Virus record (IMG/VR): IMGVR_UViG_2526164619_000005
Location: 1 to 12,767 of that record
Strand: one strand, 5' to 3'
Length of the DNA stretch: 12,767 nucleotides
Origin: a virus
Taxonomy: Duplodnaviria > Heunggongvirae > Uroviricota > Caudoviricetes
This document shows, in pieces, positions 245 through 7,691 of this stretch. Positions within the stretch are counted from its first letter, which is position 1, and each line of letters opens with the position of its first letter. Made by a program: the position numbers and the translations under genes. Below the pieces are notes generated by a model, which was not told where the DNA came from, searched no databases, and worked only from the letters and a program-made list of their open reading frames with translations.

Positions 245-330
245 GTAAGCGTAAACTGACCGCCGTATGTAGCCATTAAGCCTGTATTGGTAACGTAGGT
301 GCCCACCTTTTCAACTAGTGGACACCTGTT

Positions 331-751
331 ATGGAACAGAAAGCATTATCTGCAGAACCCCGCAGATCATTTTCAAATGAGTTTAAACTTCAAATGGTTA
401 AACTGGCTTCACAACCAGGAGCCTCTGTTGCCCGTATTGCCCGGGGAACACGATATCAATGATAACCTGCTGTTCAAATGGCTCAGGCTCTGGCAGAACA
501 AAGGGCGCATATCGCGGCGTCTTCCGGTAACAACCTCTTCTGACACTGGCGTTGAATTATTACCTGTGGAGATAACGCCGGATGAGCCGAAAGAACCGGT
601 GGCTGCTCTTACTCCGTCTTTATCTACTCAGACTACAGTTAGTGCCAGCTCCTGCAAGGTGGAGTTCCGTCACGGTAACATGACGCTGGAAAATCCTTCA
701 CCAGAGCTGCTCACAGTGTTGATCCGTGAACTGACCGGGAGGGGACGATGA
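331..751 (+). pseudogene. IS66-family orfA (accessory helix-turn-helix protein), frameshifted
   Basis: ATG at 331 opens a reading frame giving MEQKALSAEPRRSFSNEFKLQMVKLASQPGASVARIAR, which hits a stop at 460-462. The protein continues in the +1 frame (EHDINDNLLFKWLRLWQNKGRISRR... to 751). The switch sits at a run of four G at 443-446, consistent with one extra G. Confidence 0.7.
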
Positions 752-1098
752 TCTCACTCCCGTCAGGCACCCGCATCTGGCTCGTTGCTGGGATAACCGA
801 TATGCGTAAGTCTTTCAACGGGCTGGGTGAACAGGTACAGCATGTGCTGAATGATAATCCCTTCTCCGGTCACCTGTTCATCTTCCGTGGCCGACGGGGT
901 GACATGATTAAAATCCTGTGGGCTGATGCTGATGGTCTGTGCCTGTTCACCAGACGCCTGGAGGAAGGCCAGTTTATCTGGCCTGCTGTGCGTGACGGCA
1001 AGGTATCCATTACCCGCTCGCAACTGGCAATGCTCCTCGATAAGCTGGACTGGCGTCAGCCAAAAACATCCCGCCTTAACGCACTGACAATGTTGTAA
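748..1098 (+). CDS. IS66-family orfB (TnpB-like accessory protein), apparently intact, 116 aa
   Basis: ORF begins MISLPSGTRIWLVAGITDMRKSFNGLGEQV...; its start overlaps the orfA stop (ATGA at 748-751), the usual IS66 arrangement. Confidence 0.8.
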   Translation: MISLPSGTRIWLVAGITDMRKSFNGLGEQVQHVLNDNPFSGHLFIFRGRRGDMIKILWADADGLCLFTRRLEEGQFIWPAVRDGKVSITRSQLAMLLDKLDWRQPKTSRLNALTML

Positions 1099-1128
1099 AA
1101 ATGTCATGGCCGGATTATAAAAACGGCC

Positions 1129-2721
1129 ATGAATCAAAAATACCTCATTCGCATTGCAGAACTGGAATGCCAGCTCCGTCAGAAAGACCAGCAACTGAGT
1201 CTGGTTGAAGAGACGGAGGCCTTCCTGCGCTCTGCACTGGCCCGCGCCGAAGAAAAGATCGAAGAAGATGAACGGGAAATAGAACATCTGCGGGCTCAGA
1301 TAGAAAAACTGCGCCGGATGCTGTTCGGTACCCGTTCTGAAAAACTGCGTCGTGAAGTTGAACAGGCTGAGGCCCTGCTGAAACAAAGCGAACAGGACAG
1401 TGATCGTTACAGTGGGCGGGAAGACGATCCGCAGGTTCCCCGCCAGTTGCGACAGTCTCGTCATCGTCGCCCGTTACCGGAGCATCTGCCCCGCGAAATA
1501 AATCGCCTGGAGCCAGAAGAAAGCTGTTGCCCGGAGTGTGGCGGTGAGCTGGATTATCTGGGGGAAGTCAGCGCAGAACAACTGGAACTGGTGAGCAGCG
1601 CTCTGAAAGTGATCCGCACAGAACGGGTAAAAAAAGCCTGTCCAAAATGTGACTGCATCGTTGAAGCACCGGCACCATCCCGTCCGATAGAGCGTGGTAT
1701 CGCGGGCCCGGGGTTACTTGCCCGCGTGTTAACGGGAAAATACTGCGAACACCTGCCACTGTATCGTCAGAGTGAAATTTTTTGCCCGTCAGGGTGTCGA
1801 ACTGAGCCGTGCATTACTCTCCAACTGGGTTGACGCGTGCTGCCAGTTAATGACGCCGCTGAATGATGCTCTGTACCGTTATGTGATGAACAGCCGCAAA
1901 GTTCACACTGATGACACACCAGTAAAAGTGCTGGCACCGGGCAGGAAGAAGGCGAAAACAGGATATATCTGGACGTATGTCCGGGATGACAGGAATGCCG
2001 GTTCGCCAGAGCCTCCGGCGGTCTGGTTCGCCTACTCACCGGACCATCAGGGTAACATCCGGAGCAGCACCTTAGTCCCTTCCGGGGTATCCTGCAGGCA
2101 GATGCGTTTAATGGTTACGATCGGCTGTTCAGTGCCGAACGAGAAGGCGGCGCGTTGACGGAAGCAGGATGCTGGGCTCATGCGCGGCGCAAAGTCCACG
2201 ATGTATATATCAGTACCAAAAGCGCGACAGCGGAAGAAGCCCTGAAACTAATCGGTGAGCTGTACGCCATCGAGCACGAAATACGCGGGTTGCCGGTGTC
2301 TGAACGCCTGGCGGTCAGGCAAATGCAGAGTAAACTGCTACTGACTTCTCTGTATAAGCTGATGCAGGAGAAAGAACACACGTTATCGAAAAAATGCCGT
2401 CTGAGAGATGCGTTCCGGTATATCAGGAAGCACTGGGTTGCGTTGTGCAACTTCAGTGATGATGGTCTGGCTGAGGCGGATAATAATGCCGCGGAAAGAG
2501 CGCGTCGTGCAGTCTGTCTCGGAAAGAAAAACTTTATGTTCTTCGGCAGCGATCACGGTGGAGAGCGTGGTGCGCTACTGTACGGGCTGATCGGCACCTG
2601 CCGACTGAACGGTATCGATCCGGAAGCGTATCTGCGCTATATCCTGAGCGTACTGCCGGAATGGCCTTCCAACCGTGTTGACGAACTCCTGCCATGGAAC
2701 GTAGCACTCACCAATAAATAA
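1129..2721 (+). pseudogene. IS66-family transposase (orfC/TnpC) broken into three ORFs by two single-base indels
   Basis: Three pieces (1129-1833, 1772-2158, 2155-2721) together read as one transposase (zinc-finger-like CPECGG...CPKCD motif, then ...YIWTYVRDD..., ...AGCWAHARRK...). The frame changes +1 at a run of six T (1778-1783) and returns at a two-A site (2054-2055, ggtaacatcc). Confidence 0.75.
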
Positions 2722-2809
2722 GCGTCAATACGGTGCTCCGTTGACGCTGATATGACTTTCCGTGTCAAACCGGAATCTCTAATTTTGACGATTTTCTTTT
2801 TAGGTTTAA

Positions 2810-2996
2810 TTCCCTGAGGGCGACGTAGCAGTAAATCCGACGGTGAATCACGCTGATATTCGCGGGTTGGATACCGCATTACAGAGGTCCGTCATATGAG
2901 CCTGCCACTTTCTTACGTCGCGAATCAGCTTTGTTCCGCCGTCGCCAAGCGCTAACGTGGGTTACTCTTGTACCGGGCTACGTCGCCTTCAGGGAA
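2810..2996. repeat. Pair of 20-bp inverted repeats (2810-2829 ttccctgagggcgacgtagc; 2977-2996 gctacgtcgccttcagggaa) flanking a 147-bp spacer
   Basis: The arms are reverse complements with one mismatch. They lie between the IS66 transposase stop and the IS110-family transposase stop; meaning unknown. Confidence 0.5.
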
Positions 2997-3013
2997 CTGG
3001 TTATTCTCATTTT

Positions 3014-4141
3014 TTATTTGTGACATTGTGGTTGTTGTGCGACAGACATTGCTATTCGGCCCATATCCCAGATAAAACCCGCCAGCTCACGTGCAACAGC
3101 AACAATTGTAATATTGACATTCTTTCCTTTGGCCTGAAGTTTTCGATACCTCTTACAAAGCCTGAGTTGAGCATCCCATGCTCTGTCAATGACGGGGCGG
3201 GGTAAATTTTCCTGCCTTTTTTGTATTGCCGGACTGATGCGTGCCGGATGACGGTAACTCCACGCTGCCTCGACCAATAGCTTTCTGGCATAGCTGTTTC
3301 CGGCTTTGGTAATGCTGCCCTGATGTCTGCTTCCACCCGATGAATATTCTGATGGCGTGATACCAAACCATGACATCAGTTGTCGTGGATGTTCAAAACG
3401 GGTCAGATCACCCAGTTCAGAAATTAATCCAACCGCAGTAATAAACTGAATCCCTCGCATGGCTTGCAGCGCCTCTACTACCGGATACAGCCTCCATTCG
3501 GTAACGGCCTCCTTCAGGGCGGATTCCAGCCGTTCACATTGTGCCTGCCGGTCTTCTATTGTACGACGGTGTTCGTCAAAAGCTAATTGTCGCCAGGGAC
3601 TTTCGAATGAGTATTTGCTGAGCCAGCGTCGGTGTGCAGGGCCCCAATCTGCTCGCCCGACATAATGGACCCCATGAACCAGAAGAAACGATTTCAGACG
3701 TTGCCTTGCATGCCGTAAATCATCGCGGGCAGATGCCCATGCCCGGGCCAAATCCCGGAATGCCTCATCTTCAATGCCGGGTACGTAGACAGCAGAAAGA
3801 TCTCCTGCACGCAGTGAACGCACAAGTCTGATGGCATCACGGCGATCGGTTTTAACCCGCTCCCCCGGTTTTTTCGGGATAAGTGAGGGGGCGCAGACCA
3901 TGCAGTCAAAACCGGATTTCACCAGCCGACGATAAAGTCCATAACCACAGGGCCACGCTTCATAAACGATACTGACCTGCGATGACTTTGACCTGAGACG
4001 TTTACAAAGATTCTGAATATCAGTAGGTGATGTGCCAATTTTACCCATCAGTTCAACAGGTTCTGAATTGATAGCATAAGCGACAGTAATCGATTCTTTG
4101 TGAACATCTAACCCGACGTACAATGTGTTATTGTTGTTCAT
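3014..4141 (-). CDS. IS110-family transposase (DEDD type), 375 aa, apparently intact
   Basis: Begins MNNNNTLYVGLDVHKESITVAYA... (IS110 N-terminal motif) and has the family's C-terminal region (...GIQFITAVGLISELGDLTRFEHPRQLMSWFGITPSEYSSGG...). GGAGG ribosome-binding site upstream of the ATG at 4139-4141. The six-frame ORF extends to 4189 but the first ATG with a ribosome-binding site is used here. Element boundaries not determined. Confidence 0.85.
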   Translation of the reverse strand: MNNNNTLYVGLDVHKESITVAYAINSEPVELMGKIGTSPTDIQNLCKRLRSKSSQVSIVYEAWPCGYGLYRRLVKSGFDCMVCAPSLIPKKPGERVKTDRRDAIRLVRSLRAGDLSAVYVPGIEDEAFRDLARAWASARDDLRHARQRLKSFLLVHGVHYVGRADWGPAHRRWLSKYSFESPWRQLAFDEHRRTIEDRQAQCERLESALKEAVTEWRLYPVVEALQAMRGIQFITAVGLISELGDLTRFEHPRQLMSWFGITPSEYSSGGSRHQGSITKAGNSYARKLLVEAAWSYRHPARISPAIQKRQENLPRPVIDRAWDAQLRLCKRYRKLQAKGKNVNITIVAVARELAGFIWDMGRIAMSVAQQPQCHK

Positions 4142-4356
4142 GCTGGCCTCCGTGGTGGAAATACCGGGGTGTAGCAACAGCTCACCCATGCGGCTCTGAC
4201 AACGATGTTAACCCGCGTTAAATATCCCACGTTGGCCAGCATCTGTCTCACGGAAAGTCATACTGCCTTACTATCGTATTGATTGATCTGCATCAAATTA
4301 ACGTAAAAGCAACTTCAGATAATACAAATCAGCAACACTGAATATGGGGAAACATT

Positions 4357-5607: not shown

Positions 5608-6081
5608 CTAGTTAATACACTGAGTGCGGATATATTCCTGCGCCCCTTCCAGTTGCTTCTGCATTGTCATCAACCGCTCTCTGAGGGTGAAATAATCCCG
5701 TTCAGCGGTGTCTGCCAGTCGGGGGCCGGTTGCATTATCCATTCCGGAGGTGCCGGTGGCTTCACGCACGGTACCGGAGCAGGTGGCGTTGATCCGCAGG
5801 CGCTTACGACCAGCGGCAACATCAGCACGCAGAGTTTCATTTTCAGCTCTCGCATCGGCTAATTCCCTTGAGTATCTGGCATCAAGCGCAGCAACATCAC
5901 GCTGGCGCTGCTGCATGTCAGTAATGGTTGCGTTTGCCAGCTCCAGCTCTCTGGCTTTTTTATCGCGCTGCGCTTTGTAGGTGATGGCGTTATCACGGTA
6001 ATGGTCTGTTGCCAGCCACAGCGCACCACAGACCACCAGCAGAATAACGGTAAACGCGGAAAGCATTCGGTTTATGTTCAC
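5608..6081 (-). CDS. Rz: Rz inner-membrane spanin (i-spanin), lambda-like
   Basis: ...[55 protein letters not shown]...[27 protein letters not shown] matches lambda Rz closely from memory. Start is either GTG 6079-6081 or ATG 6064-6066. Confidence 0.85.
5670..5840 (-). CDS. Rz1: Rz1 outer-membrane lipoprotein spanin (o-spanin), embedded in Rz in the +1 frame
   Basis: [56 protein letters not shown]: lipobox, proline-rich, same architecture as lambda Rz1. Confidence 0.8.
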
Positions 6082-6432: not shown

Positions 6433-6467
6433 GAAACACAAAACCCCGCTTGGTGCCAACAAACGGG
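6433..6467 (-). terminator. Rho-independent-type terminator hairpin (minus strand), between endolysin and the small ORFs
   Basis: Minus-strand RNA: 8-bp stem CCCGUUUG/CAAGCGGG (one G-U pair), loop UUGGCAC, then GUUUUGUGUUUC. The plus strand also shows a hairpin followed by TTTTTT (6468-6473). Confidence 0.55.
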
Positions 6468-6604
6468 TTTTTTACTTTTATTCACTTACGTTTCGCCAGT
6501 TCGCAGGATTTCGTGTTATCCGTCCGCGTGCTCATGTCTTATTTTTCAGCAAAATATTCTGCTTATCTGTCGATGTCCCAGCACGCCAGCGCACTTTCCT
6601 GGTC

Positions 6605-7096
6605 TCACCGGGATACCTGACCGTAGCAATTATTTGAGCGGATACGGCAGTCTCTGCCACCGTCCTTAATCCACCAGCGAATCGCTTCGCATGCTCCCCT
6701 GCGGTCACCAGCATTAATCCGTCTGTAAAACGTCGACGGGAAACACTTACCGGGGCCAATGTTATAGGGACAAAATGACGCGATACCCGCTTTCTGGGGT
6801 TCGGTCAGCGGCACTTTAATATTGCGCTCCACCCATGCCAGCGCCTTATCACGCTCAATGGCGTTGACCTGGTCGCATTTTTCCTTCGACAACTTCATGC
6901 CCGGGACGACAGGTTTACTATCCACCAGGATGGCACCGCGGCAGATGGTCCAGATACCCGCGCCATCACGGTATGCCGTGGTGTGGTTACCTTCCTTTTC
7001 ATCCAGAAACTGGTCGAGGATTTCAGGCGCAGGCGCACCTGCGGCAATCAGCGCCAGAACGGCAGCCGACAGGCCGTATTTGATTTTGGTGTTCAT
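6605..7096 (-). CDS. Phage endolysin (lysozyme) of the signal-anchor-release type, RrrD/P21-like
   Basis: N-terminal hydrophobic anchor (MNTKIKYGLSAAVLALIAAGAPAPE) followed by a lysozyme-like body (...EGNHTTAYRDGAGIWTICRG...). Stop is TGA at 6605-6607 (see findings). Confidence 0.85.
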   Translation of the reverse strand: MNTKIKYGLSAAVLALIAAGAPAPEILDQFLDEKEGNHTTAYRDGAGIWTICRGAILVDSKPVVPGMKLSKEKCDQVNAIERDKALAWVERNIKVPLTEPQKAGIASFCPYNIGPGKCFPSTFYRRINAGDRRGACEAIRWWIKDGGRDCRIRSNNCYGQVSR

Positions 7097-7138: not shown

Positions 7139-7471
7139 TTAAGTCTTCAGAGAACCAGTAATTATTCCCGGTAGTTTTCCTCTGTAGGTTATCAACACAT
7201 CCTGCGCCTCTAAAATTACGGGGCGCTTTTCCGGCAACGGACCATCCCCTTCACATAACCCGGCAGCAACATCCATGAAAAACTGCTTCGCCTGCTTTTT
7301 CGCCTCAGCTTCGTAAAACTCCAGCGTGGCATCTTCAGTACGGTCAAGACTAATCGCCACATCTGGCAACAACAGTGACGGACACCCACCAATTTCCAGT
7401 GCCACAGTAACAGTAATCTTATTCGGGTAATTATTTATCCCTTTAACAACCAGTTCGTATTTTTTCTTCAT
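7139..7471 (-). CDS. Hypothetical 110-aa protein between holin and endolysin (possibly YdfR/DUF1327-like by position)
   Basis: ATG 7469-7471 with GGGGAGAG ribosome-binding site, 4 nt after the holin stop. MKKKYELVVKGINNYPNKITVTVALEIGGCPSLLLPD.... Family assignment is by synteny memory only. Confidence 0.55.
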   Translation of the reverse strand: MKKKYELVVKGINNYPNKITVTVALEIGGCPSLLLPDVAISLDRTEDATLEFYEAEAKKQAKQFFMDVAAGLCEGDGPLPEKRPVILEAQDVLITYRGKLPGIITGSLKT

Positions 7472-7475
7472 CGCT

Positions 7476-7691
7476 TTACTCTCCCCGCGCCGCCTTACGA
7501 CGGTCCTCTCTGATTTTGAAATACAGGTTAGTCAGATATGTCAGCAGCCCAAACAACAGACTCCCCAGCACGCCTATTGCCGCCCACTGAGACGGGGAAA
7601 CCCTGTCCAGCAACTGCAGGAACCAGTAGCCCGTTCCCACCGCAGATGTGGTGTATGACACACCTGTTGTGATTTTTTCCATCTGGTACAT
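7476..7691 (-). CDS. Class II holin (S21-like pinholin) with dual-start motif MYQM
   Basis: [71 protein letters not shown]: S21/EssD-like. Two in-frame ATGs (7689-7691 and 7680-7682) would give 71- and 68-aa forms. Confidence 0.85.

Follow-up and report, generated by a model that had tools for sequence, protein, structure and literature searches.

The lysozyme gene considered here has its closest described relatives in RrrQ (YdfQ) of the Qin cryptic prophage, an 89% identical protein with the same RRDQESAL-CWG tail, and in R of the Stx phage H-19B (AAD17382.1), the R region of which is 92.5% identical in DNA. Both RrrQ and H-19B R are full length at 177 aa, whereas the allele studied here carries a TGA at codon 164. 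The gene order at the RrrQ and Stx-phage R loci, comprising a P21 S-type holin, ydfR, the lysozyme and Rz/Rz1, is also the order found at the present locus. R21 (3HDE/3HDF) and RrrD (4ZPU), the prototype SAR endolysins, have a GH24 fold in common with the enzyme (Foldseek probability 1.00 over 173–183 aligned columns) and, like it, are paired with a P21 S-type holin. The likeness extends to a Gly/Ala-rich N-terminal segment, the Glu-Asp-Thr residues and the Arg pair and Trp of the C-terminal helix; compared with R21 and RrrD, however, identity is 36%, and the RrrQ type adds a 7-residue Cys-rich insertion (RIRSNNC) and eight invariant cysteines. In endolysins of the P21/P22 type the catalytic Glu forms a salt bridge with a conserved Arg on the C-terminal helix, as described with the structure of AcLys (PDB 6ET6; PMC6024848).

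The stretch of DNA analysed (12 767 nt, hereafter the window) was identified by exact-sequence look-up as contig AKMY01000008.1 of assembly GCA_000268165.1, Shigella flexneri K-315, and represents the late/lysis region of a lambdoid prophage lying on the minus strand. The truncated endolysin ORF (6605–7096, minus strand) starts with the ATG at 7096 and runs for 163 codons to the end ...NNCYGQVSR, followed by the TGA at 6607–6605. Its 163-aa product, on deposit as EIQ25818.1/WP_001092880.1 ('phage lysozyme family protein [Shigella flexneri K-315]'), was recognised as a GH24 phage lysozyme by a match to PF00959 (E=4e-23; 82.5 bits, cut-off 22.3) covering residues 33–149 and profile positions 2–114 of 125. 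Beyond the TGA lies the orphaned 3' end of the gene (6563–6604, minus strand), consisting of the 13 codons GAC CAG GAA AGT GCG CTG GCG TGC TGG GAC ATC GAC AGA, which read DQESALACWDIDR, and the original TAA at 6565–6563. A run of 13 sense codons past a stop has a chance probability of (61/64)^13, about 0.54, and is not significant on its own, so that the meaning of this tail has to rest on homology. The ORF and the tail together make up 534 nt (177 codons and a stop), the same length as in annotated homologs; the orphaned end is identical to that of the intact allele, with all 13 codons matching its C-terminus, and no homolog was found to end naturally at GQVSR. Two annotated homologs, WP_109966835.1 ('lysozyme', from an E. 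coli chromosome) and H-19B R, have an Arg codon at the site of the TGA, and in both loci the tail-coding sequence and the 3' flank are conserved. A terminator-like hairpin with a T-run, recognised by consensus match only, is located 3' of the lysozyme gene (6445–6467, minus strand) and is kept in the E. coli and phage H-19B relatives. A further hairpin, at 6540–6612 (minus strand), spans the last part of the lysozyme gene whichever allele is present, the mutation turning a C–G pair into U–G.

An initial annotation of the window had placed the TGA, the tail peptide and the TAA at exactly these positions, as borne out by minus-strand reading and translation of 7096 to 6563. It had also proposed that the TGA replaced an Arg codon and that the last 14 residues were lost, and both proposals held in comparison with intact loci, which revealed a single CGA to TGA transition at base 6607 and a shortening of the polypeptide from 177 to 163 aa. 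The C-terminal sequence that it gave for such lysozymes, ...GQVSRRDQESALACWGIDR, is a genuine C-terminus of close relatives (for example, P0007 and P0021), and the codons downstream of the stop match lysozyme C-termini at 13 of 13 positions. Its label of an RrrD-type enzyme had to be replaced. K-12 RrrD (DLP12) is 36% identical and ends in ...GLMTRREIEREVCLWGQQ, in contrast to K-12 RrrQ, with 89% identity over 177 aa and the RRDQESAL-CWG tail; on sequence grounds the enzyme is assigned to the RrrQ type (or the Stx-phage R type), not to the RrrD type. Direct reading of residues 8–24, GLSAAVLALIAAGAPAP, revealed a Gly/Ala/Ser-rich, weakly hydrophobic SAR-like segment that aligns with the SAR region of RrrD. 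The catalytic positions E35, D44 and T50 (Glu-8aa-Asp-5aa-Thr) are invariant with respect to RrrQ and RrrD and in 26 relatives, and a P21 S-type holin gene (PF04971) is located two genes upstream of the lysozyme. The SAR segment, the catalytic positions and the class II holin together constitute the predicted anatomy of a SAR endolysin.

The origin of the stop was examined by comparison with further loci carrying either allele. The TGA base recurred in at least five further assemblies or read sets obtained independently (GCA_049894805.1, GCA_026022055.1, ERR200335, ERR6006326 and SRR066119). Flanking DNA was 100% identical across 3.4–4.0 kb between the window and the TGA-carrying loci L004–L007, and a single 1-base gap in about 2 kb separated it from the TGA carrier L008; the TGA carriers therefore represent one small clonal sublineage with a true allele. 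The 163-aa form occurred in 7–10 contigs of the public collection. The restored 177-aa protein, in which the stop is replaced by Arg and the rest is unchanged, was found there verbatim in at least 999 contigs (1244 index blocks); it is named 'MULTISPECIES: lysozyme [Enterobacteriaceae]' and has the UniRef representative A0A3T2V0Z0_SHIFL (S. flexneri). Of the chromosomal loci in which the lysozyme gene is intact, ten were retrieved and seven (L009, L010, L012, L014, L015, L016 and L018) were compared with the window column by column. Inside the lysozyme gene the sole difference private to the window was base 6607, with C in all seven intact loci and T in the window on the coding strand, altering codon 164 (6605–6607, minus strand) from CGA (Arg) to TGA. 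Identity between the window and the intact loci L010, L012, L015 and L018 was 99.0–99.4% across 5.4–7.9 kb, and in these four loci the downstream order of Rz, the TonB_C ORF, DUF3950, IS110 and IS66 was as in the window.

Degenerate-pattern scans identified no viral contig with TGA at codon 164, and CGN was present at this codon in at least 120 viral contigs (72 CGT, 18 CGA, 15 CGG and 15 CGC among the matches listed). A 100-mer containing the TGA matched no complete E. coli genome at more than 96%; the best matches among these genomes were 94% over 701 nt and 96% over the 100-mer. The background of the allele is essentially absent from the complete E. coli set, and allele frequencies in E. 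coli are not derivable from that search. An exact-pattern scan of species-representative genomes matched neither allele, Shigella presumably not being separately represented there. A Dcm (CCWGG) deamination hotspot was considered as the source of the mutation and rejected, as the mutated C sits in GGCGAG and direct reading places the nearest CCAGG at 6598–6602. The change at base 6607 is a plain single G:C to A:T transition.

The segment removed by the stop is strongly conserved. Among 26 relatives (76–95% identity, many enterobacterial genera), which have lengths of 174–182 aa, residues R163, R164, Q166, E167, S168, L170, C172 and W173 were invariant. A natural short isoform was rejected on the basis of these lengths and of the invariant tail. 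Other short members of the 90% cluster were contig-end partials or mis-clustered terminase fragments and did not have the same stop. An AlphaFold model of the restored protein (mean pLDDT 80.8, pTM 0.81) placed the last helix at residues 161–171, and Foldseek matched this model to full-length R21 (3HDE, 173 columns), the DLP12 endolysin (4ZPU) and other GH24 endolysins, with the AcLys endolysin (PDB 6ET6) also among the structure matches. In the profile alignment GQVSRRDQESALA is set against GLMTRREIEREIC of R21, so that R163 and R164 correspond to R152 and R153 of R21 and RrrD. According to the model, the stop takes out nearly all of the last helix (161–171). R164, C172 and W173 are lost, R163 is left as the last residue and the loss of C172 leaves an odd number of cysteines, seven of the eight invariant ones. 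A complete GH24 fold with the C-terminal helix is present in the ancestral 177-aa allele and absent in the 163-aa product. Conservation and structure indicate that enzyme activity is likely to be lost or strongly reduced, since the missing helix would position the Arg that is tied to the catalytic Glu in homologs; the 163-aa product may possess residual activity, since the SAR segment, the catalytic triad and the terminal R163 are all retained. Literature searches yielded no specific deletion study of the C-terminal helix in SAR endolysins and nothing specific on this Shigella pseudogene, the AcLys structure paper being the only relevant one retrieved.

The P21 S-type holin, of the class II, pinholin-like kind (7476–7691, minus strand; 71 aa; PF04971, E=9e-33) is the same protein as in the intact loci, with two lineage-private synonymous changes at 7647 and 7644. 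ydfR (DUF1327; 7139–7471, minus strand; PF07041) encodes 110 aa compared with 114, its last four codons (PPLA) having been lost to a 20-bp deletion near 7151 (between 7139 and 7160) that is confined to the K-315-like lineage; the 20 bp are present in all seven intact comparison loci. In addition, ydfR has a lineage-private Y30C at 7383, and three further private substitutions, beyond the holin and ydfR changes, were found in the 3.9-kb cassette of the K-315 lineage. The i-spanin Rz (5608–6081, minus strand; 157 aa; PF03245, E=7e-50) is the same as in the intact loci. An intact Rz1-like ORF (5670–5855, minus strand) lies within Rz in the +1 frame and, on direct sequence reading, encodes a proline-rich polypeptide with a lipobox-like LVVSAC, which is likely to be the o-spanin. 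The cassette has been damaged elsewhere in a different manner. Three sister loci (L009, L013 and L016), in which the lysozyme is intact and which have the IS1 insertion in common with the window, carry a 75-bp in-frame Rz deletion between two DVAA-coding repeats (at about 9197–9205 in these loci, corresponding to 5825–5899 of the window). The embedded Rz1 ORF loses its beginning, start codon included, through this deletion, an event independent of the lysozyme stop but affecting the same cassette.

The prophage around the cassette is extensively decayed. The order of features in the window is a DNA methylase gene, three tRNAs, an esterase gene, the holin, ydfR, the lysozyme, two small ORFs, Rz/Rz1, a TonB_C ORF, IS110 and IS66. 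The start of an IS1-like element (12417–12767, plus strand; ORF at 12472–12747), delimited by alignment with the IS1 of L009 and continuing past the contig end, interrupts the prophage DNA methyltransferase gene. An IS3-family element (8149–9408, plus strand; rve/HTH_21; ORFs at 8212–8499 and 8549–9211), with boundaries taken from alignments to L010 and L012, has truncated the DUF1737/SASA (sialate O-acetylesterase-like) gene at 9393–10781 (minus strand), which lacks its 3' part and encodes 462 aa compared with 621 when intact. About 0.7 kb is missing beside this insertion, comprising part of DUF6645 and a DUF1378 ORF. An IS110-family element (2749–4266, minus strand; PF01548/PF02371) is located where packaging and structural genes would begin; it is absent at that point in L009, L013 and L016, and L011 and L014 have the terminase there. 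The adjoining IS66-family element (245–2748, plus strand) is itself decayed, since its transposase (1129–2721) is split into ORFs of 234, 128/102 and 188 aa compared with a single 530-aa ORF in L012 and L015. IS110 and IS66 together occupy the site at which related phages carry terminase and head genes, and gene and Pfam annotation identified no terminase or structural genes in the window. The element is thus a non-viable remnant broken by four IS elements, and consequently nothing selects for phage release.

The upstream part of the remnant contains RNA genes. The tRNA cluster (11270–11519, minus strand) has the anticodons CAT (assigned to Met by ARAGORN and to tRNA-Ile at the homologous E. 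coli locus L001), TCG (Arg) and TCT (Arg), a three-tRNA arrangement which we take to be that of Stx-type lambdoid phages. A predicted STnc100 sRNA (11004–11194, minus strand; strong Rfam match of 139 bits, gathering score 47) is located just downstream of this cluster and upstream of the esterase gene. The methylase/tRNA segment (12416–11015) is 99% identical to loci of the L009 type and only 92–95% identical to those of the L010/L012/L015 type, whereas the lysis segment has 99% identity to both; this difference in similarity to the two locus types indicates mosaic recombination among prophage remnants.

The mutation and its ancestry were observed directly, as were the scarcity of the allele, the degree to which the tail is conserved and the decayed state of the surrounding prophage, and the gene has an early stop compared with near-identical intact orthologues and a remaining frame that is recognisable, as in a nonsense pseudogene. 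We consider it very probable that the locus carries a recent loss-of-function (nonsense) allele of an RrrQ-type SAR endolysin gene in a defective S. flexneri prophage. Following the G:C to A:T transition at 6607, which made codon 164 a stop, translation now ends after R163 and the truncated enzyme is most likely misfolded or inactive, so that the gene would be a pseudogene; only the youth of the mutation would explain why the 13 codons beyond the stop are intact. Because particle production would be impossible in such a remnant, lysis would be unselected, and the mutation may represent neutral decay or may have been mildly favoured by disarming a potentially lethal enzyme. In enterobacteria UGA leaks more than the other stop codons, and a small fraction of full-length protein may still arise in this way. 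A related but rather unlikely proposal is that the remnant is still transcribed and that its lysis cassette is under selection for disarming instead of drifting, with R164stop in this lineage and the 75-bp Rz/Rz1 deletion in the sister loci as independent outcomes in separate S. flexneri sublineages. The driver in that case would be the lethality of a membrane-tethered SAR endolysin upon membrane depolarisation; in a weaker variant the 163-aa product would survive as an attenuated, host-tolerated muramidase.

Loss of function has to be weighed against continued function of the shortened enzyme, in which the C-terminal helix would be dispensable and the allele kept by the host as a functional, perhaps attenuated or detoxified, variant. 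The SAR segment and E35/D44/T50 are kept, the truncated product still scores 82.5 bits against PF00959, and the holin, Rz and Rz1 are intact in the TGA lineage, as would fit a cassette with some remaining role. Domesticated, attenuated GH24 lysins are known from other systems, such as the SpmX muramidase domain (6H9D, a fold match here; bioRxiv 10.1101/418723). Nevertheless, few segments of the family are as well conserved as the tail, which makes up the final helix of the fold and bears the Arg pair that, in homologs, is tied to the catalytic Glu; C172 is lost with seven cysteines left, and the allele is limited to about ten contigs; we therefore regard a working 163-aa enzyme as improbable. 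Decoding of the TGA appears more improbable still. It would involve programmed or leaky readthrough by tRNA-Trp or a near-cognate tRNA-Arg(UCG), or insertion of selenocysteine, with low-level full-length endolysin serving as dosage control. The 13 codons downstream are intact, a stable hairpin spans the TGA (-22.0 kcal/mol, z=-3.1) and the prophage has genes for tRNA-Arg(tcg) (11360–11436) and tRNA-Arg(tct). However, intact downstream codons are expected of any young mutation, and an invariant Arg is needed at this position. The ancestral CGA allele folds into an identical hairpin of greater stability (-24.6 kcal/mol), so that the hairpin predates the mutation and did not evolve around the stop, and Rfam identified no family at the stop. 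Moreover, the stop was present in none of the seven orthologous loci and was without a match in at least 120 viral relatives or in complete E. coli genomes. As to a sequencing or assembly error in one draft genome, the window is indeed a short contig of a draft assembly, but the recurrence of the base in the independent assemblies and read sets listed above refutes this explanation and leaves it next to no probability.

With the gene interpreted as a recent nonsense pseudogene, the consequences beyond annotation are small: the ORF calls for a label as a pseudogene, or as a truncated allele of an RrrQ-type SAR endolysin, in place of its entry as an ordinary 'phage lysozyme family protein'. The locus provides a clean, datable case of stepwise lysis-cassette decay in an IS-rich Shigella prophage remnant, and base 6607 could mark membership of the K-315-like sublineage. 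Should the 163-aa enzyme prove inactive, the allele would show in nature that SAR endolysins need their C-terminal helix, as solved homologs already lead one to expect. The process is ordinary gene decay and involves no new mechanism, and the allele is already in databases. Pseudogenes are a general and well-established feature of Shigella genomes rich in IS elements and of defective lambdoid prophages. As in the present case, they can arise by a single nonsense mutation in an otherwise intact background, adjoin IS insertions and deletions, and are accompanied by independent disabling lesions in sister lineages; in none of these respects is the lysozyme allele of S. flexneri K-315 distinctive among them.
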